From a virus, in the IMG/VR virus record IMGVR_UViG_3300010219_000025, positions 1-6,296 of that record: a stretch of DNA of 6,296 nucleotides, one strand, 5' to 3'. The translations under genes were made by a program, and so were the position numbers. Below the pieces are notes generated by a model. It was not told where the DNA came from and made no database searches. It was given only the letters and a program-made list of their open reading frames with translations. Positions within the stretch are counted from its first letter, which is position 1; each line of letters starts with the position of its first letter. Shown here in pieces: positions 1 through 6,296 of this stretch.

Positions 1-55
1 CTGCAGCTGCGTGGGCCACGTGGCACGCACTCCGCTGACAGCCTTGGACGAACTC
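1..55. repeat. Terminal direct repeat, copy 1 (identical to 6242-6296)
   Basis: Base-by-base comparison: ctgcagctgcgtgggccacgtggcacgcactccgctgacagccttggacgaactc occurs at both window ends. Confidence 0.97.
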
Positions 56-80
56 GACAAGCGACCCATAATCCTCCCCG

Positions 81-147
81 TTGGCATTTGGGCATTGGCA
101 CCGTGCCAATTGGCGAAATGTCAACGATAAGGCTGAGCTATGTCAAC
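81..147. promoter_or_regulatory. Operator-like repeat cluster upstream of and overlapping the HTH gene start
   Basis: TTGGCA at 81-86 and 95-100, TGCCAA at 104-109, TTGGCG at 110-115. Together they include a perfect 15-bp palindrome TTGGCAC-C-GTGCCAA (95-109). ATGTCAAC is a direct repeat at 118-125 and 140-147, 22 bp apart. Each copy reads as a perfect TTGACA -35 hexamer on the minus strand. I found no convincing -10 hexamer. Confidence 0.4.
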
Positions 148-562
148 CCCCAATGAGCACCTTGTTGCACTGATCGAACGAGCCGCGGCCAATGTCGGCA
201 GCGAGGCAAAGCTCGCCCGGGCAATGGACATGGACCCCCCGACGCTCTCGAACATCAAGGCCGGCAAGCGGCCGTGTCCGCCAGAGGTTCGAGCACTCCT
301 GGCCGGCTACGCCAGAGAAGACGCAGTGCAGGAACTGGTCCGGGCCCACCTCGAGCGCACCGAGGGCACCAGGCGTGGCGAGCAGCTCCGGATCCTCTTG
401 GGAAACGTATCGCGAGCGACTGGCGCGGCAAGCGTTTTCGGCGCGCTGGTCCTTGGCAGCCTGATCTGCTGGCCGACTCCGAGCCAGGCCCGAACGGTAG
501 CTAACGTAATCGATACGATGATTGGAAAGGTCAAATGGCGGCGCCTGTTCCAGCCTGCCTAG
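140..562 (+). CDS. HTH (Cro/CI-like) transcriptional regulator with a C-terminal hydrophobic segment; candidate phage repressor or immunity protein
   Basis: 140-aa ORF with ATG at 140 and TAAGG (128-132) 7 nt upstream. HTH-like stretch GSEAKLARAMDMDPPTLSNIKAGKR (about aa 20-44). Hydrophobic stretch GAASVFGALVLGSLICW (about aa 95-111). It is followed directly by an intrinsic terminator. It is the only clear plus-strand gene, as is common for repressors of temperate inoviruses. Confidence 0.75.
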   Translation: MSTPNEHLVALIERAAANVGSEAKLARAMDMDPPTLSNIKAGKRPCPPEVRALLAGYAREDAVQELVRAHLERTEGTRRGEQLRILLGNVSRATGAASVFGALVLGSLICWPTPSQARTVANVIDTMIGKVKWRRLFQPA

Positions 563-578
563 GCTAAGGCAACCCCGC

Positions 579-606
579 AAAGCCCGCCTAGTGCGGGCTT
601 TTTCTT
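579..606. terminator. Intrinsic terminator shared by the convergent HTH gene and rep
   Basis: Stem AAGCCCGC (580-587) pairs with GCGGGCTT (593-600) around a 5-nt loop. It is followed by TTTTTCTT on the plus strand and preceded by an A-run. The rep stop codon (588-590, complement) lies in the loop. Confidence 0.75.
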
Positions 607-1445
607 GGGTCGCGCTCTGTGCACAACCACCACGCGTCACGCCAACGGTTCAGACTGTGCGACACGACAACCTCCCCGTCCTGCAACGTGAACGCCGCCG
701 CGATCACATCCGCCAGCTCCCCACCTAGCCTCACCGTCTGGATGCGCCCGACGTCGATAGCGTTGGAACGGCTGTAGCGGTTCTTCTCGTCCGGGCTGTT
801 CTCCGCGTCCTTCAGGATGTACTTGGACACGTAGGCGGCCATCTTCGCTGGAGACCGCAACGCCTTGCGAGACTTGACCTTGGATGGCTTGCCGCCGACG
901 AACACCAGGCCGTTGTCCTCGCCAACGATGGAGCGCCAGATCTCCGTGCCGAGCCTCCAGCCAGCGACCTTAACGCCCTTGTGCGTCGCATGCTGCGGCA
1001 GCTTGTGGCACGCCACGTGCCAGTGATACGAGCCGCGCTCCTGCAGCTCCGGCGCCGCGCAGTAGCGAAACTCGCCGCCGAGCGCACGTTTCATGCGCCG
1101 CACCCATTCCTTGAAATGCCGCTTCGTCGCCTCGCGGTCCTGCATGTTCTCGCGATAGGTGATCGTCAGGAGCTCGTTGAACCCCTCGGCCTTGATCACC
1201 CTTCGGCACATGGTTTGTGCGCGCCTGGCGGCCTTCCGACGGGCCTGCTGGCGCTTTTCCTCAAGCCACTCCGCATCCCGCACCGGATCGATGGGATCAA
1301 GGTCTGGGACCGGCCCTAGTTCCGACCACTCGATAACCGGGCGGGCTGACACCTCGCGATGGCCGTTCTGTTCCCAGATCCGCACGTCCCAGGCGTCATA
1401 GCGGGTCTTTCCTTCATACAGGGTTCCGTCGACAATCCTCTGCAT
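588..1445 (-). CDS. Rolling-circle replication initiator, HUH endonuclease superfamily (phiX174 gpA-like, two-tyrosine type)
   Basis: 285 aa with ATG at 1445 and GAGGAG (complement of 1452-1457) 6 nt upstream. Motifs: LLTITY (motif 1), YHWHVACH (HUH motif) and AAYVSKYILK (Y-x3-Y, resembling phiX174 gpA YVAKYVNK as I recall it). Confidence 0.92.
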   Translation of the reverse strand: MQRIVDGTLYEGKTRYDAWDVRIWEQNGHREVSARPVIEWSELGPVPDLDPIDPVRDAEWLEEKRQQARRKAARRAQTMCRRVIKAEGFNELLTITYRENMQDREATKRHFKEWVRRMKRALGGEFRYCAAPELQERGSYHWHVACHKLPQHATHKGVKVAGWRLGTEIWRSIVGEDNGLVFVGGKPSKVKSRKALRSPAKMAAYVSKYILKDAENSPDEKNRYSRSNAIDVGRIQTVRLGGELADVIAAAFTLQDGEVVVSHSLNRWRDAWWLCTERDPRKSPH

Positions 1446-1475
1446 TCGCAGCTCCTCGCTCTTTGCTGTGAATCC

Positions 1476-1517
1476 GAACCCGGAACGGTTGCAGCCGTTG
1501 CCGGGTTCACCTTTTTC
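1476..1517 (+). terminator. Strong hairpin plus T5 run, terminator-like on the plus strand; may instead be an ssDNA structural element of the origin or packaging region
   Basis: GAACCCGG-AACGG (1476-1488), loop TTGCAG, CCGTT-(G bulge)-CCGGGTTC (1495-1508), then ACC and TTTTT (1512-1516). It sits 31 nt upstream of the rep start on the opposite strand. Confidence 0.45.
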
Positions 1518-1533
1518 AGACCTGCGCTTGTCT

Positions 1534-1583
1534 CTGTTCCAAAGTGTTCTAGAAACAAGTTAGGCGGCGCCTGCGGCGCCGCC
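1534..1583 (-). promoter_or_regulatory. Candidate viral-strand replication origin: AT-richer patch with a phiX174-ori-like sequence next to a perfect GC hairpin
   Basis: The minus strand 1562->1534 reads TAACTTGTTTCTAGAACACTTTGGAACAG. Adjacent is a 9-bp all-GC stem GGCGGCGCC-tgc-GGCGCCGCC (1563-1583). It is the only AT-richer island between zot and rep and lies just upstream of the gpA-like rep gene. Confidence 0.35.
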
Positions 1584-2366
1584 GTGAAGGCCGCAAGCGA
1601 CCTTCTCGGCGCCGCCGCGCTCCGCCCGGCCAGCTCCAAGACCGCCCCCGGCCAGAGCACCAGCGCCGGCCGTTGCAGGACACGCAGCCTGGTGCGAATC
1701 GCCGGCAACCAGAGATGCGGCCATCGGCACTACGTGCCGACCGGGCTCTACGTGCTGCGCATCGAGCCTGCTGCGCAGTCTCGACCCTTCGGGCTTGATC
1801 CCTTGTCCCTCCGCTTCGCTGCGCGCTTCGCTTGCCGGGGGGGCAACCTCTCTCCAGGCGAGGGTGTCACTCCGACCTACGGCAGTAAAGGCCGCTTCGC
1901 GCCGCTGCGCGGTTGCCTTCGGCAAGCCTTGACAGCCTACGGCCGGAGCGACCCAGCGCGCGCATGAGGATGACCCCCCCACCATGGGACCAGGGTCCCC
2001 TGCTGCAACAGGAGCCGCCGCAACATGATCGCCGCCAACTTCCGCCGCTACCCCGAAGCACTGGCCCACCAGCTGTGCCTGCCATTCGGCGCGCTCGTCT
2101 GGGCCACGCGGCGCCCCGGTGCGCGCCTGCTGCGAGCGATTCGCGCAGCCCGGGCGGCAGTAGTCAAGCGTCAGCCACACGTGCCGGCCTGGATGCCGCC
2201 GCTGTGCATCGAGCCAAGCCGGCCCCTCCCAGCTTGGGCGAAGGCACAGGCCAGGGAGAGCCGTGGGCTTGCAACCAAGGTGCGCCTTGCATGCCTCGCG
2301 CTCTTTCACGAGCGCGTAACCCTCGTGACGCTCGCCGGCGACGTCCTGGTGCTTGCCTGACGCCAT
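1560..2366 (-). CDS. Hypothetical protein (268 aa) in the slot downstream of zot; no family recognised; the 3' half may be non-coding structured DNA
   Basis: The ATG at 2366-2364 shares its A with the zot TGA (TGATG overlap). A G-rich SD-like run GGGGGTGGGG (complement of 2371-2380) lies 4 nt upstream. The frame stays open to TAA at 1562-1560. GC shows clear codon periodicity over 2025-2360 by hand count. The codon-aligned antisense ORF 2025-2360 (+), with AGGAG at 2010-2014, is an unresolved alternative. Confidence 0.4.
   Translation of the reverse strand: MASGKHQDVAGERHEGYALVKEREACKAHLGCKPTALPGLCLRPSWEGPAWLDAQRRHPGRHVWLTLDYCRPGCANRSQQARTGAPRGPDERAEWQAQLVGQCFGVAAEVGGDHVAAAPVAAGDPGPMVGGSSSCARWVAPAVGCQGLPKATAQRREAAFTAVGRSDTLAWREVAPPASEARSEAEGQGIKPEGSRLRSRLDAQHVEPGRHVVPMAASLVAGDSHQAACPATAGAGALAGGGLGAGRAERGGAEKVACGLHGGAAGAA
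1811..1943. repeat. Degenerate tandem duplication of a structured module
   Basis: Unit 1: CCGCTTCGC 1811-1819, TGCGCG 1820-1825, hairpin TTGCC-ggggg-GGCAA 1832-1846, CCTACGGC 1876-1883. Unit 2: CCGCTTCGC 1892-1900, TGCGCG 1906-1911, hairpin TTGCC-ttc-GGCAA 1913-1925, CCTACGGC 1936-1943. Confidence 0.55.
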
Positions 2367-3400
2367 CACGCCCCACCCCCAGCTGCAGCCGGCGAAGGTG
2401 ACGCCACTGGAGCGCCACGCTCGGCCACAGTCGGCGGGTCGCGGTACGGATCGAATGGCCGATGCTCGGTCCACTCGCGGCACTCGCGCACGCTGAGCCT
2501 CGCATCGCTGCCCTGCTGTGTGAAGCACCTGCAGATCTCGCCCTGGCAGAAGCCCGCCACCACCCGCGGGAAGTCCTTTACCTTGACCAGGTCGTCGTAG
2601 GCCGGCGCGGACTCGGGCCTGCCCGCCCAGCGTGGCGCGAATGCAGTCGGGTCAGCGACGTAGATCGGCGCCGGCCTGCCGCTCGATGTCACCGCCTTGG
2701 AAGTGAAACCGGTTTGACTTCCAACAACAGCCTGGCTGCCTGGTGCAGCTGCACCAGGTACAGCCTGGCCAGGCCCAGCCGGATTGAATTTGCGATTCAA
2801 CATCCGGTAGCCCATGAATAGCAGCACCAGGAAGGCGACCACGGCAACGATCGCGACAATTGCCATTGTCGGAATTCGCCTCTCTGGCTTGATATGCAAA
2901 GACGCGGATTTGTAGAGCGTGAAAATGTGCCGGGGCAGCTTGTGCTTGTGCTTATTGGTGCACGTGCGCCAGGCCACGTTCTCGCTGCACTCCGGCCACT
3001 CGTACCACCAGCGGCCGAGGAAACCCGTGTCCCGCAGATGGATGTGCCGCCCCACCAGGCGCCGTACGTTGCCATGCACCAGGCCGGGCGCCTGCGTCGT
3101 CATCCAGATATCGATCCCTCGATGCCGGTGCGTCTCCAGCGCCTGGATCTCAGGCGGCACCTTGGCACCTGGTCCTGCCGGCCGCCAGAGCCGCTGAACT
3201 TCGTCGATCAACAGCAACGCACCGTCCGGCAATTCCTCATGCCATTTGGATGCATCGATGGCCTGGTGCGGAATTGTCAGACCGTTGACGCCATCAACAA
3301 AGATCGGCCTGGTCGTCTCGCGCTTCAATAGCTCGTGCAATTCGGCCACCATTTGCGCGGTTTTGCCCGCACCAGGTGCGCCGGTGAATAGCGTCAGCAT
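2366..3400 (-). CDS. zot: Zot / pI-family morphogenesis (assembly) ATPase
   Basis: 344 aa. Walker A GAPGAGKT lies at the N-terminus and Walker B LLLIDE follows. A central TM helix MAIVAIVAVVAFLVLLFMGY precedes a C-terminal periplasmic domain. The ATG at 3400 directly follows the upstream TAA, with GAGG 8 nt upstream. Confidence 0.95.
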   Translation of the reverse strand: MLTLFTGAPGAGKTAQMVAELHELLKRETTRPIFVDGVNGLTIPHQAIDASKWHEELPDGALLLIDEVQRLWRPAGPGAKVPPEIQALETHRHRGIDIWMTTQAPGLVHGNVRRLVGRHIHLRDTGFLGRWWYEWPECSENVAWRTCTNKHKHKLPRHIFTLYKSASLHIKPERRIPTMAIVAIVAVVAFLVLLFMGYRMLNRKFNPAGPGQAVPGAAAPGSQAVVGSQTGFTSKAVTSSGRPAPIYVADPTAFAPRWAGRPESAPAYDDLVKVKDFPRVVAGFCQGEICRCFTQQGSDARLSVRECREWTEHRPFDPYRDPPTVAERGAPVASPSPAAAGGGA

Positions 3401-3676
3401 TTAGCGAACCTCGAAGCGCTTTAGCAGCATCACGGACACCGACGCCACCAGGCCGCCGGCCAGGATGCTCAAGGCCGTGGACGCGCCCGCGATCTGCACC
3501 ATGGCCAGCACATCGCCGGTGAGGCCACCCCAGGCCGCTTTGGCCGACGAGAGCGCAGCCTGCAGGGCCGTGCTCAACGCGGCAAACGACACCACGCCCA
3601 TGCCGATGCCCACCATGGCGCGCTTCGTGACGGTGGCCGCAATCCCGGCCAGGAAGGAACCGAGCCCTGCGCTCAT
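3401..3676 (-). CDS. pVI-like minor coat / membrane protein
   Basis: 91 aa, Gly/Ala-rich with about three hydrophobic segments. It sits between the pIII-like and Zot genes. Its ATG overlaps the pIII stop (ATGA at 3676-3673), with GAGG 5 nt upstream. Confidence 0.8.
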   Translation of the reverse strand: MSAGLGSFLAGIAATVTKRAMVGIGMGVVSFAALSTALQAALSSAKAAWGGLTGDVLAMVQIAGASTALSILAGGLVASVSVMLLKRFEVR

Positions 3677-4977
3677 TCACGCCTCACAGCCGCAACGACC
3701 ATCGCGGCTGCAGCCAGCCAGGCAAAGGCCAAGATGATCGGCCGCACGCCGGCCGCAAACTGGCACACCAGGTCAAACGGAATTGACAGCTGCACACCGG
3801 ACACGGTGAGCGAACGAGGCGAGGGGCATGCCGCGCTATCGGCCCCCCAGCCGCTGTCCGGCGTAATCGAGATCGGCACCTGGCGAGTGGGCAGATCGAC
3901 GTCGTCTGGCTGGTCGAGCCGCTGACAGGCGAGCGCGTCCGGGTTCTGCGCGCACATGTCCGGCGTGTCTTTGCTCGTCGTCGTCTGCCCGCTCGGCGCC
4001 GAGGCAGGCGGCGTGGCCGGCTGCGCCTGGCCATTCGGATCCGTGCTCTCAACGTCTTTCGGCTGGAGATCAACTGTCCACGGCGACGGCATCGGCACAA
4101 CGTCAATGACCGGCTGCCTATACCGCTGCGGGTCCGTGTTGGGCACTGGCTGCGGCGCACCATTGGGCACGCGCCATGGCCGCGGCGCACCGTCGGGACC
4201 AGGGTTCAGCGTCGGATCCTCCACCGGCAACGGACCAGGCCAGGCGGCCGGCGGCGTCTTGCCATCCATACCGTTCTCCATGTCGGTCTGCGTCGCCGGG
4301 ATCCACACCGGCTGCTGCACCGCAGTGTCACGCCGACCGAACCATGCCTCGCCATTCGTCCAGGTGGACGTCGTCGAACTGTGGAACCGATACGAGAGCA
4401 CACCGTCACCGGCGCCCCCAGTAGCCGTCAGGCCCGTCTGCTCGTACGTATAGCCGACGTTAACCTGACGGTACCTCGCCAGGTACAGGTCAGCCAAAGC
4501 CTGCCGATCCCGCCCCCACCAGGTCGTGCCATAGGCAGTCAGCGAGAGCTCGTAACACGGCCCCACCGTGCACACCGTTGGATCGGTCTTAAGCCACTGT
4601 CCGGACGGCGAGTCCCACTTGAAGCCGTTCCCCTGGTACCAATCCCAGATCAACGGAGCCGCTATGGACGCCGCGATGATCCAGGGGTTACTGAACCCCC
4701 AGCCACCCGCAAAACGGCCCGCGTTGGCCGCCATACGCATCGCAGCGGGCATCGTCACAGCACGACCGCCCATGTTGATCGTGGCTTCCGTTGCAATGCT
4801 GCCTGCGGACCATGCCTCATTCGCGGCCGCCCGGTACGTCGCGCGCTCAGTCGCCGACGCGGCTGCAGCCCACCCGGAGGGCGGCGTTGCGGTGGCAACG
4901 CCCGCGTGCACCCTGGGCGTGCAGGCCAGAACCGCCGCGGCGGCCAGGAACATCAAAGCGCCCTGCAGACGATCCAT
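3673..4977 (-). CDS. pIII-like adsorption / minor coat protein
   Basis: 434 aa from the ATG at 4977; the track start at 5004 is a TTG with no SD. Signal peptide MDRLQGALMFLAAAAVLACTPRVHA. Three Cys pairs, a long Pro-rich linker (about 3970-4260) and a C-terminal TM anchor RPIILAFAWLAAAAMVVAAV. Size and position match gIII. Confidence 0.85.
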   Translation of the reverse strand: MDRLQGALMFLAAAAVLACTPRVHAGVATATPPSGWAAAASATERATYRAAANEAWSAGSIATEATINMGGRAVTMPAAMRMAANAGRFAGGWGFSNPWIIAASIAAPLIWDWYQGNGFKWDSPSGQWLKTDPTVCTVGPCYELSLTAYGTTWWGRDRQALADLYLARYRQVNVGYTYEQTGLTATGGAGDGVLSYRFHSSTTSTWTNGEAWFGRRDTAVQQPVWIPATQTDMENGMDGKTPPAAWPGPLPVEDPTLNPGPDGAPRPWRVPNGAPQPVPNTDPQRYRQPVIDVVPMPSPWTVDLQPKDVESTDPNGQAQPATPPASAPSGQTTTSKDTPDMCAQNPDALACQRLDQPDDVDLPTRQVPISITPDSGWGADSAACPSPRSLTVSGVQLSIPFDLVCQFAAGVRPIILAFAWLAAAAMVVAAVRRE

Positions 4978-5020
4978 GCGAGCCCCACTGGTCCGATGAA
5001 GCAAACGATGAACATGGGCG

Positions 5021-5341
5021 TCATTCCTCGGCCCCTTTCCTCAGCGCCATCACGGCAGCGCCAGCGAGCCACACCAGGGCGATGCCCCAGCCGAGCGCGA
5101 GGCCGTCCTGCCAATCGAGCAGCCCGCAGGGCTGCAGGCTCACCGCCTGGACGAGCGTCACCGCTTCGCCACCGGCGATGGGCCGGAATTGATAGGTGAT
5201 CGAGGTCTCGGACACCGCCGAGACGTCCACCACCATGGCCGACCCACCGTGTTGCACGATCGAGCCGACCTGCGCCGACGCGATCGCTGACACGGCTGCC
5301 ACGGCATCGCCGTAGCACGTGGGGCCGACCTGGTAGGCCAT
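5021..5341 (-). CDS. Small protein with a C-terminal TM anchor (possible minor virion or assembly protein)
   Basis: 106 aa. The ATG at 5341-5339 shares one base with the coat gene TGA (TGATG). C-terminal hydrophobic helix GLALGWGIALVWLAGAAVMAL followed by RKGAEE. It lies between the gVIII-like and gIII-like genes. Confidence 0.7.
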   Translation of the reverse strand: MAYQVGPTCYGDAVAAVSAIASAQVGSIVQHGGSAMVVDVSAVSETSITYQFRPIAGGEAVTLVQAVSLQPCGLLDWQDGLALGWGIALVWLAGAAVMALRKGAEE

Positions 5342-5541
5342 CAAAGGCCCTTGCGGATGAACTTGATCGCGAAGATCGCGATGATCGCGGCCAGCACGGT
5401 GCCGGCCACGGTCAGGCCATCGGCCTTGAGGTCCGCGATGGCCGTCGTGACGTCGGCCGGGACAGCGGCCATCGCCGAACCGGCGGTGGCAGCAACGAAG
5501 GCGGGCACGGCCGCCAGGCGGGAAACGAGCTTTTTGCTCAT
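5341..5541 (-). CDS. Major coat protein (pVIII-like)
   Basis: 66-aa precursor from the ATG at 5541, with GGAGA 8 nt upstream. Signal peptide MSKKLVSRLAAVPAFVAATAGSAMA. The 41-aa mature peptide AVPADVTTAIADLKADGLTVAGTVLAAIIAIFAIKFIRKGL has an acidic N-terminus, hydrophobic core and basic C-terminus. The 83-aa track ORF start is rejected. Confidence 0.9.
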   Translation of the reverse strand: MSKKLVSRLAAVPAFVAATAGSAMAAVPADVTTAIADLKADGLTVAGTVLAAIIAIFAIKFIRKGL

Positions 5542-5615
5542 GGGACAGATCTCCGAGTGCACCGGCAAAAGCGCCGGCAGAGAAGGGCGCACGCGCCCCT
5601 CCCGGCCGACAGGCC

Positions 5616-5921
5616 TTACGCCGAGCGAGCAGGGCGCAGCTGTTCCGGCTTGATGGGCGTCAGGCTCGCGAGCTCCGCGACGATCTTCCCCTGGTTGTCG
5701 CCATAGGTCGGCGCAGTGAGCGTGAACCCCGCCGTGAACAGGCCGACCTTGGCGACCTCGTCGAGCTTTTTCGGCACCTGCAGCACGCCGACCGCCGCCG
5801 CGCTGCCGTCTGTGTTGCGCAACACGCAGTGCGCCTCCGAGATCTTGTACGGAGCATGCGGCGGCTTTTTGCTCACGCCCTCTTTCACGTTGATGGCCAG
5901 GATTTCAATGATCGATTGCAT
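5616..5921 (-). CDS. ssDNA-binding protein (gV-like)
   Basis: 101 aa from the ATG at 5921: MQSIIEILAINVKEGVSKKPPHAPYKISE... This resembles the Ff gVp N-terminal pattern (MIKVEIK...SRQGKPY) as I recall it. Size and position upstream of the coat gene fit gV. The alternative upstream ATG at 5999 would add 26 aa. Confidence 0.78.
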   Translation of the reverse strand: MQSIIEILAINVKEGVSKKPPHAPYKISEAHCVLRNTDGSAAAVGVLQVPKKLDEVAKVGLFTAGFTLTAPTYGDNQGKIVAELASLTPIKPEQLRPARSA

Positions 5922-5995
5922 AGTTCGCCCGTCAATGAGGCACCGCAAGAGCGCGGCGTTATGGCCCCTGCCAACCAAGAGCCAGAACGCCGCGC

Positions 5996-6296
5996 TCATG
6001 CGCCGATCACGAGACAGCCAGCGGCACGAACAACAACCGGGTGCACCAGGTGCCCAGCCAGGTGACGAGCAAGCACAGCGCGCGCCGTACGATAGGTGGA
6101 TGACCCACCGCTACCGCCTACCGGATCACGTGAAGGAGCGCCAGGCTCGCGAGCTTCGCGAGCGTTTTGCCCGCTCGCACGGTGCAGGGACGCAGCAAAG
6201 AAGGGCCAGGCGGGCCTGGTGGCTGGTTGCGGCGGCGGCAGCTGCAGCTGCGTGGGCCACGTGGCACGCACTCCGCTGACAGCCTTGGACGAACTC
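5996..6296 (-). CDS. Junction-spanning hypothetical ORF (104 aa on the closed circle; the start codon is at 69-67, not in this copy)
   Basis: On the circle the frame runs from the ATG at 69-67, preceded by GGGGAGG (complement of 73-79), through position 1/6241 to TGA at 5998-5996. The track shows only a GTG-started fragment (5996-6271). GC is flat across codon positions and the product is Pro/Ser/Arg/Ala-rich, which argues against real coding. Confidence 0.25.
   Translation of the reverse strand, partial: SSSKAVSGVRATWPTQLQLPPPQPATRPAWPFFAASLHRASGQNAREAREPGAPSRDPVGGSGGSSTYRTARAVLARHLAGHLVHPVVVRAAGCLVIGA
6145..6170. other. Hairpin with GCGAAGC on the coding strand, followed by T4 on the plus strand
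   Basis: An 8-bp stem formed by GCTCGCGA (6145-6152) and TCGCGAGC (6156-6163), with loop GCT (6153-6155), then G and TTTT (6165-6168). Confidence 0.4.
6242..6296. repeat. Terminal direct repeat, copy 2 (circular-assembly overlap)
   Basis: Identical to 1-55. Position 6242 is equivalent to position 1. Confidence 0.97.

Follow-up and report, generated by a model that had tools for sequence, protein, structure and literature searches.

What lies directly downstream of zot in the inovirus genome held by IMG/VR record IMGVR_UViG_3300010219_000025 is the question addressed here, using the whole 6,296-nucleotide (nt) stretch of that record (positions 1 to 6,296; hereafter the window). With its 55-nt terminal direct repeat (1-55 and 6242-6296) the window amounts to a whole inovirus genome, circular and 6241 nt long, and the only large stretch of the circle without a recognised gene is the 920 nt from the zot stop to the rep start. 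A preliminary description had placed in this stretch a minus-strand open reading frame (ORF) of 268 codons as the probable site of an undescribed phage function, and had listed a 111-codon ORF on the opposite strand as an alternative. The slot and the antisense alternative stand, but the 268-residue minus-strand protein does not. Judged by comparison among relatives, 2025-2360 on the plus strand is a real and conserved gene of 111 residues, here called p111, and the 268-codon ORF is no gene, the orphan protein that it seemed to encode being not real. The stretch 1560-2366 is two different things that lie in one open minus-strand frame, in sequence of 68-72 % G+C. The explanation that we regard as probable overall is a plus-strand p111 gene followed by an intergenic and origin region, with p111 serving as a DNA-binding or nucleoid-associated regulator. 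The features on which this question turns are as follows.

1560-2366, minus strand: the reported 268-codon ORF, a non-coding shadow frame made up of p111 antisense and read-through into the intergenic region
2025-2360, plus strand: p111 gene, 111 aa, pI 11.6, start MIAANFRRYPEALAHQ, tail-to-tail with zot, stop codons 5 nt apart
2010-2014, plus strand: ribosome-binding site AGGAG of p111, 10 nt before the ATG, read from the sequence

The conserved gene after zot is on the plus strand

The features that had drawn attention to the minus strand were largely reproduced. The zot stop TGA (2368-2366) and the ATG of the 268-codon frame (2366-2364), both on the minus strand, have one base in common (cgTGATGgc), the G-rich run GGGGGTGGGG sits before this overlap, and the frame is open for 268 codons to a TAA at 1562-1560. 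The GC contents given earlier by minus-frame codon position (79/56/76 and 78/67/68 percent) were recomputed as 78.6/56.2/75.9 % over 2025-2360 and 77.5/66.9/68.3 % over 1560-1985. The first 113 residues of the 268-residue product do contain the 6 Cys and 4 Trp that had been counted, but 5 His rather than 6. The antisense ORF was also as described, being very basic (pI 11.6, with 17 Lys+Arg and 5 Asp+Glu) and preceded by AGGAG 10 nt upstream; AGGAG or GGAG is equally placed upstream of most p111 homologues. p111 has neither a signal peptide nor a membrane segment. Neither product matches Pfam or PHROG, in agreement with the earlier remark that no family was recognised.

Comparisons among relatives, which the preliminary description had proposed in the form of homologues, stop codons and synonymous versus nonsynonymous change on each strand, decide for the plus strand. 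When 5.8e9 proteins were searched with p111, 25 homologues were found at E<=1e-3 (best non-self match E=2.6e-28), one of which, P0001, is an identical protein among the gene calls of the JGI record; in a profile search, 152 of 1.84 billion cluster representatives matched, 78 of them at E<=1e-10. A tblastn search with p111 found a counterpart in 8 of 48 zot-related loci, in every case just downstream of zot and on the opposite strand. The 268-residue product has zero homologues at E<=1e-3 among the same 5.8e9 proteins, zero tblastn matches in the first 48 zot-related loci and nothing in Pfam, PHROGs, NCBIfam or PADLOC, and it was left uncalled by the JGI gene caller.

The p111 ORF is codon-aligned with the 268-codon frame, and the pattern of substitution distinguishes the two strands. 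In two gap-free blocks of an alignment of 35 distinct coding sequences, plus-frame codon entropies are 0.51/0.33/1.05 and 0.78/0.61/1.53, so that variation at plus codon position 3 is two- to threefold that at positions 1 and 2. The third plus position coincides with the first of the codon-aligned antisense frame, so this variation excludes the minus frame. The ratio of nonsynonymous to synonymous change (dN/dS; Nei-Gojobori, 46 pairs that exclude the window's own copy) is, at the median, 0.195 for the plus frame and 1.33 for the antisense. The minus frame is broken by stops in 12 of the 35 homologous loci, and an ATG or GTG start is kept in 33 of the 35 p111 copies, with the frame kept and ends that vary in length in frame. 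The weak preference for the minus frame that had been drawn from third-position G versus C usage was wrong, as it is the plus strand that codes. The same contest can be followed in L052, one of six relatives that share the Rep protein of the window (L009, L019, L020, L021, L039 and L052; Rep identity to the window's 33-56 %). The layout of L052 is that of the window (rep / intergenic / p111 / zot), and it has a similarly placed antisense ORF of 273 aa whose GTG start overlaps its zot stop. The minus-strand ORFs of L052 and the window are unrelated (E=1.1), and p111 matches its plus-strand counterpart in L052 at E=1e-19.

The length of the shadow frame is in line with the antisense frames of this genome. 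Across the eight recognisable genes and p111, codon-aligned antisense frames have 0.64 stops per 100 codons, compared with 1.56 and 2.89 for the other two antisense frames, and opposite gIII a single stop occurs in 443 codons, leaving an open frame of 470 codons. Since codon-aligned antisense frames are stop-poor here, the p111 shadow is open as expected. Beyond the 111 codons of this shadow the frame runs for 155 further codons through non-coding DNA of 67.5 % G+C, and its first stop sits directly after a hairpin at 1563-1583; a random sequence with the base composition of the region would have about a 1 % chance of 268 open codons. Over 1560-2024, GC3 (65.8 %) is below GC1 (79.4 %), which is opposite to every recognisable gene of the window. 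The 268-codon frame is a shadow of the kind that G+C-rich genes usually cast, codon-aligned and poor in stops, which by chance extends through intergenic DNA, and the hairpins and repeats that had been seen at 1560-1985 belong to the intergenic and origin region.

Two other accounts of the locus have to be weighed against a plus-strand gene. We regard it as very improbable that the minus-strand ORF encodes a genuine orphan accessory protein whose translation is coupled to that of zot by the overlap TGATG. Its start does overlap the zot stop after a G-rich run, 268 codons are open, and L052 offers a comparable ORF with an overlapping GTG. However, these features stand against the want of any homologue or gene call, the unrelated product of L052, the stops in a third of the relatives with an antisense dN/dS of about 1.3, the reversed GC3 of the 3' half, and the rule that codon-aligned antisense frames are open in this genome. 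In addition, Rep-sharing relatives without p111 have only a non-coding gap of 480-880 nt at this position. Equally hard to credit is that 2025-2360 encodes no protein on either strand and owes its conservation to an element at the DNA or RNA level, for example a packaging signal or an attachment site. Although the segment borders the intergenic region, and other conserved non-coding blocks are found just upstream of p111 homologues, the three-base periodicity at plus position 3, the dN/dS of 0.2, the retention of start and frame and the in-frame variation at the ends all speak for a protein, and as single-stranded DNA (ssDNA) the segment folds no better than shuffled sequence does (z=-0.5).

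p111 represents an undescribed family of inovirus proteins

The family to which p111 belongs is unnamed, with at least 150 clusters at 50 % identity. It is undescribed, lying outside the models of Pfam, NCBIfam, PHROG and PADLOC and outside GenBank phage and plasmid records; specifically, tblastn found no homologue in GenBank plasmid records with p111 as query or in GenBank phage records with a homologue as query. Carriers are inoviruses and inovirus prophages, and the few named hosts are Comamonadaceae; homologues occur, for instance, in Acidovorax sp. LjRoot118 (protein LJR118_003919) and in Paracidovorax valerianellae DSM 16619. Members begin with a motif that extends from residue 1 (M-I-A-x-N-[YF]-x-K-x-P-E-A-x-A-x-Q) and that p111 has in the form MIAANFRRYPEALAHQ. 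Among 106 sequences I2 and Q16 are invariant, and A3, N5 and A12 are conserved in at least 90 %. A second conserved helix begins P-x-W-[FW]-K, with P69 and W71 of p111 nearly invariant, and the p111 module bears an arginine-rich insert (RP-x-x-R-x-LR-x-IR). An AlphaFold model built from the same 106 sequences predicts that p111 is all-helical, with four helices at residues 3-8, 10-15, 34-49 and 70-93, the last of which has a pLDDT of ~95; an earlier model from 25 sequences had a pLDDT of 66. A PDB profile search also returned RecA (E=8e-10), a match that was rejected because the chains are artificial five- or six-copy RecA concatemers in which single stretches score ~7 bits (i-E 50-90).

Analysis of gene order in 35 distinct loci revealed that in 34 of them p111 lies on the strand opposite to zot and converges with it, and separate gene calls agree. 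In 13 of these 35 loci the stop codons of p111 and zot are at most 5 nt apart or overlapping, which leaves no room for a terminator, so that transcripts must overlap there. The upstream partner of the homologues differs from locus to locus (a G2P-type Rep, a serine recombinase (resolvase) or other genes), and among the co-oriented small genes conserved upstream of p111 homologues none is common with the window. Since it is absent from most zot relatives, the p111 gene is accessory. One contig (P0003, JGI 3300048101) holds a prophage with the order zot / p111-like gene / 84-aa gene / G2P Rep / resolvase, flanked by two ComEC (Competence) gene fragments, which suggests integration into comEC by the serine recombinase.

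The N-terminal half of p111 is much better conserved than Zot, the usual hallmark of inoviruses. In 305 pairs of phages with only 29 % identity in the Zot N-domain, residues 2-50 of p111 keep 72 % identity, and dS is saturated between lineages with such diverged Zot. At the sequence level this combination argues for constraint and not for recent transfer.

Distant relatives of p111 carry an H-NS DNA-binding domain

A profile search with a wider alignment revealed that at least 17 distant relatives of p111 contain PF00816, the domain at the C-terminus of H-NS that binds DNA. In these proteins hmmscan places the domain C-terminal to the p111-like module, at roughly residues 89-118 (E=1e-8 to 2e-11), with a score above gathering in 9 of 10 checked relatives, and the domain matches the solved C-terminal domains of Ler, StpA and H-NS. 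A profile made from window-type sequences only had already matched the fused subfamily in the 1.84-billion library (E=4e-7 to 7e-5), indicating that the link does not depend on the make-up of the wider alignment, and hhalign of the window-type profile with the fused relative P0198 gave 96.6 % probability (E=5e-10, residues 1-74). The H-NS-fused relatives hold the same reversed slot beside Zot in inovirus genomes. Among 258 family members, the arginine-rich insert is present in 82, the H-NS domain in 19 and both in none, and a zinc ribbon is added in six arginine-rich members. The window-type relatives P0031, P0039 and P0041 have C-terminal CxxC...CxxC zinc-ribbon extensions with weak Zn-ribbon, Com and Lar-like matches, a hint of nucleic-acid binding. 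The whole family is basic, with a median pI of 10-11.6.

By these sequence comparisons p111 itself lacks the domain that defines the H-NS family and so falls outside it; its homology is to the N-terminal half of a lineage that is H-NS-like and specific to inoviruses. In the fused relatives the module sits where the N-terminal domain of H-NS would be, and it is helical, with no Pfam or PDB similarity to H-NS N-domains. The idea that the P-x-W segment of p111 is a degenerate H-NS C-terminal domain was unsupported (hhalign probability 3 %).

Because distant relatives in the same slot carry the H-NS C-terminal domain after the shared module, we infer that p111 may be a small, very basic regulator of DNA-binding or nucleoid-associated type, a candidate role whose prospects we put a little short of even. 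As such, p111 would be expressed from the replicative form, which is double-stranded; its helical module, shared across the family, would give self-association or partner binding, and the arginine-rich segment would replace the H-NS domain of the relatives. Since transcription of p111 runs head-on with the morphogenesis (zot) operon, p111 expression and virion production would be mutually antagonistic. A broader proposal, which we hold to be rather unlikely, is that the module defines a new inovirus-specific class of nucleoid-associated protein, coupled to an H-NS domain, an arginine-rich segment or a zinc ribbon, that controls phage silencing. If this were true, the phages would coat their replicative form or prophage, or titrate an H-NS-like silencer of the host, the switch between quiescence and virion production would lie in the head-on orientation relative to the zot operon, and the conservation of residues 2-50 would reflect a single invariant host target.

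Several observations weigh against p111 as a DNA-binding regulator and against the explanation of the locus built around it. p111 has no match in Pfam, NCBIfam, PHROGs or PADLOC, no detectable H-NS domain (none in Pfam at E<=1; hhalign with the fused C-terminal domains 3 %) and no helix-turn-helix (HTH) in Pfam or PHROGs. The AlphaFold model is only moderately confident (pLDDT 77, pTM 0.37), and Foldseek with this model found no neighbour in PDB or BFVD. A scan of 1300-2500 revealed no sigma-70-like promoter for p111, and the genome has an HTH regulator of its own (140-562, plus strand), which leaves p111 unneeded as a primary repressor; hhalign of p111 with this HTH protein, or with VGJphi ORF136/154 and RSS0 ORF13, gave a probability of at most 0.5 %. 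The window's own copy, whose closest relative is 62 % identical in protein, is outside the dN/dS pairs. Finally, the origin call made below draws on Rep-linked conservation only, and the hairpin concerned could equally be a terminator of the structural operon.

The main rival to DNA binding is that p111 binds no DNA and is a decoy of the truncated-H-NS type (H-NST, Hha) or another host-directed factor, whose N-terminal module would bind an invariant host protein, either an H-NS-like silencer or the transcription machinery, and thereby relieve or redirect phage silencing. We judge this unlikely, though far from negligible. An invariant host partner would fit an N-terminal half that is far better conserved than Zot and is uncoupled from Zot, Rep and recombinase type, the module is in the position of the H-NS oligomerisation domain in a protein without the DNA-binding domain, and the gene is accessory, being found in only 8 of the 48 zot-related loci. 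However, the module has no similarity to H-NS N-terminal domains that Pfam or PDB could detect, and the pI of 11.6 together with an arginine-rich insert that is mutually exclusive with the H-NS domain points to direct nucleic-acid binding. Much less probable still is a morphogenesis helper or regulator that acts with Zot. Such a role would account for a gene that adjoins and converges with zot in 34 of the 35 loci, over zot identities of 26-60 %, but p111 does not co-vary with Zot and has no membrane segment or signal peptide, and the fusions of its relatives to an H-NS domain point to DNA and not to the assembly machine. The gene is furthermore absent from L001, L009, L019, L021 and L039, which have similar Zot and Rep, indicating that assembly is independent of p111.

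The intergenic region contains a candidate origin of replication

Reading p111 as a plus-strand gene leaves 1446-2024 as the major intergenic region, in which the following features were located.

1446-2024, minus strand (packaged, gene-sense): major intergenic region, structured ssDNA, from fold energy and the gap sizes of relatives
1786-1922, minus strand: five GAA-loop mini-hairpins, CCGAAGG at 1786 and 1916 and GCGAAGC at 1813, 1825 and 1894
1563-1583, minus strand: G+C hairpin GGCGGCGCC-GCA-GGCGCCGCC, from a terminator-like scan, with the stop of the shadow ORF directly after it
1535-1562, minus strand: conserved 28-nt block TAACTTGTTTCTAGAACACTTTGGAACA beside the hairpin at 1563-1583, putative plus-strand origin
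1476-1516, minus strand: rep-leader A-run followed by hairpin GAACCCGG..CCGGGTTC (hairpin 1476-1508), just upstream of the rep ribosome-binding site GAGGAG at 1452-1457

Folded as ssDNA, 1446-2024 reaches -168.8 kcal/mol (z=-5.8 against shuffles), compared with z=-2.6 and +0.2 for two coding stretches and the value given above for the p111 segment. When p111 is subtracted, the zot-rep gap of the window is 579 nt, and the gaps of Rep-sharing relatives without p111 are 574 nt in L019, 573 nt in L009, 479 nt in L021 and 876 nt in L039. The mini-hairpins are strand-specific: within 1.2 kb after zot, in 64 distinct loci, GCGAAGC occurs at 0.92/kb in the zot sense versus 0.19/kb in the antisense and ~0.2/kb elsewhere, a difference of about five-fold. 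Mini-hairpins of this kind are unusually stable, are poor binders of SSB and are found where ssDNA phages have their priming sites, as well as at RSF1010 ssiA (PMC13037366). By its sequence the cluster is a likely candidate for a role in complementary-strand priming, packaging or SSB exclusion.

The hairpin at 1563-1583 and the block beside it are tied to the replication protein. Rep-sharing loci have other but complementary stems round the same GCA loop (GGCCGCGC-GCA-GCGCGGCC and GCGGGCC-GCA-GGCCCGC). Four of the six (L009, L021, L039 and L052) have the 28-nt block almost unchanged, and in L019 and L020 it can still be recognised. The loci that have this hairpin, with its compensatory stem changes, and the block are exactly those with this Rep. 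The pair is likely to be a Rep-specific plus-strand origin, with a predicted site of Rep recognition and nicking; alternatively, it could be a terminator of the long operon or a rep promoter.

Closer to rep, the arms ACCCGG/CCGGGT of the leader hairpin and its A-run are kept in all Rep-sharing loci, and the inner stem varies. Read on the plus strand this element is a hairpin followed by TTTTT, which might terminate a counter-transcript that controls rep. Rfam gave a plus-strand match to ctRNA_pGA1 at 1442-1521, opposite the leader and start codon of rep, at 26 bits and E=0.055, which is below the gathering score. The match is absent from five of the six Rep-sharing relatives (L009, L019, L020, L021 and L039), and since it does not recur in them it was taken as a generic hairpin match and its identity as ctRNA_pGA1 was rejected.

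Other p111 homologues have conserved non-coding DNA of their own upstream. An element of ~100 nt, located ~15-125 nt upstream of the gene, is more conserved than the flanking genes in L050, L053, L056-L058, L063, L041, L043, L067, L025, L070-L074 and L036, with diverged copies in L059, L068 and L051. It has the form GGCACGGCGAAGAACTCAGGGGAACGG-[hairpin GTGCAAGC..GCTTGCAC]-..-CCGGCTCGGAATCTAGGGGCCCGGTACA, that is, one hairpin with compensatory changes and two invariant blocks. The element has no Rfam match and is absent from the window, and it could be an origin, an attachment site or a p111 leader or operator. Two more conserved upstream classes were seen, in L060, L069, L075, L076 and L079-L081 and in L052, L061, L064, L072 and L077; one is marked by CCCTTGACAA and the hairpin GGACATGGCCACC..GGCGTCCATGTCC, the other by a poly-C/poly-G hairpin. 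The window is only loosely like both, with TTGACA at 1929-1934 and a C7 run near 1976-1982.

Genome context and relatives of the phage

The remaining genes of the window, with the profile matches that identify three of them, are listed below.

140-562, plus strand: helix-turn-helix regulator, phrog_638 E=6e-9, between rep and ssb
588-1445, minus strand: HUH rolling-circle Rep, Pfam REP_ORF2-G2P E=6e-14, phrog_3419 E=5e-45, downstream of the intergenic region
2366-3400, minus strand: zot / gene I assembly ATPase, Pfam Zot E=1e-21, phrog_197 E=2e-67
3401-3676, minus strand: gVI/DUF2523 protein
3673-5004, minus strand: gIII-like protein
5021-5344, minus strand: 107-aa protein
5341-5592, minus strand: major coat protein
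5616-5999, minus strand: SSB

The HTH gene converges with rep and diverges from the ssb/structural operon, and Rfam gave a sub-threshold Trp_leader-like hairpin at 530-606, over the 3' end of the gene (stop 562). No relative at the DNA level was found among GenBank phages, either by megablast with the whole window or by blastn with 1400-2420, and the closest Zot among GenBank phages is 41 % identical. Zot relatives of 43-64 % identity are found in IMG/VR contigs and in genomes of Acidovorax, Variovorax, Paracidovorax, Caldimonas and other Burkholderiales, and the host of the phage is probably a member of the Comamonadaceae. An attP of the XerCD/dif type was not found when GCGCATAAT-N6-TTATGTTAAAT or its inner palindrome was sought with at most 3 mismatches, a consensus that may not be that of the host. 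Two of the Rep-sharing relatives border on tRNA-type genes: L009 1-33 is the 3' end of a tmRNA gene, and L039 10783-11219 is three adjoining tRNA genes, which are possible integration sites for relatives of the phage.

Significance and comparison with known systems

The locus shows clearly how, in a G+C-rich phage, a long "orphan" ORF can be nothing more than the shadow of a short gene on the opposite strand, and comparative data by themselves were enough to identify the true gene. The hairpin and block linked to Rep, together with the strand-specific GAA mini-hairpins, provide concrete candidate origins for a clade without a cultured member. In work cited in PMC10011098, host H-NS-like silencers hold the filamentous prophage Pf4 in check. 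Given such silencing, a partner or mimic encoded by the phage would give a testable handle on the level of chronic inovirus production.

With regard to known systems, the H-NS family (PF00816; H-NS, StpA, Ler, Bv3F, and phage and plasmid copies) shares with the fused p111 relatives an architecture of N-terminal helical module plus C-terminal domain, and the C-terminal domain of the fused relatives has the W-[ST]-G-R-G-x-x-P-x-W motif as in that family. p111 resembles H-NS family proteins in being small, basic and helical, but the DNA-binding domain with its T-W-[ST]-G-[RQ]-G-R-x-P core is absent from p111, which has the arginine-rich insert instead. H-NST and Hha/YmoA are truncated H-NS antagonists or mimics. 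Like p111, they are small proteins of mobile elements that match the non-DNA-binding half of an H-NS-type protein; no sequence relationship between them and p111 was found.

A closer parallel in position is already known, as the slot after pI/zot of betaproteobacterial inoviruses holds a putative DNA-binding regulator, an AT-hook protein encoded downstream of pI in filamentous prophages of Cupriavidus and Ralstonia and proposed to modulate phage or host expression (PMC10011098). This protein is like p111 a small, basic, putative DNA-binding regulator directly after pI/zot, but it differs in being encoded on the zot strand, in its length of ~208 aa and in its canonical AT-hook. p111 has no GRP or RGR motif, and hhalign with RSS0 gp10 gave 0.4 % probability. 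In RSS0 (L083) the ORF directly after zot (gp10, 5055-5681), annotated only as hypothetical, has an AT-hook, KRGRGRPRK, near its N-terminus, and by its sequence it matches the AT-hook protein family of PMC10011098. VGJphi ORF136/ORF154, which are annotated as putative transcription regulators, and RSS0 ORF13 run like p111 against the main operon, between zot/pI and the origin/rep region; unlike p111 they are not tail-to-tail with zot, and hhalign with them stays below 0.5 %.

The intergenic region of the window, like that of Ff, is non-coding and strongly folding and lies between the last morphogenesis gene and the replication gene, and its strand-specific GNA-loop mini-hairpins are of the kind seen at the ssDNA-priming sites of G4, St-1, alpha3 and RSF1010 ssiA. 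It has no sequence similarity to the origins of Ff and other ssDNA phages, and the functions suggested for its hairpins are predictions from conservation. Finally, no toxin or secretin domain was found in the product of either strand with Pfam, PHROG or NCBIfam. CTXphi has ctxAB, and Ff has gene IV, at the same position after zot or gene I, whereas the real gene of the window at this position is on the opposite strand.

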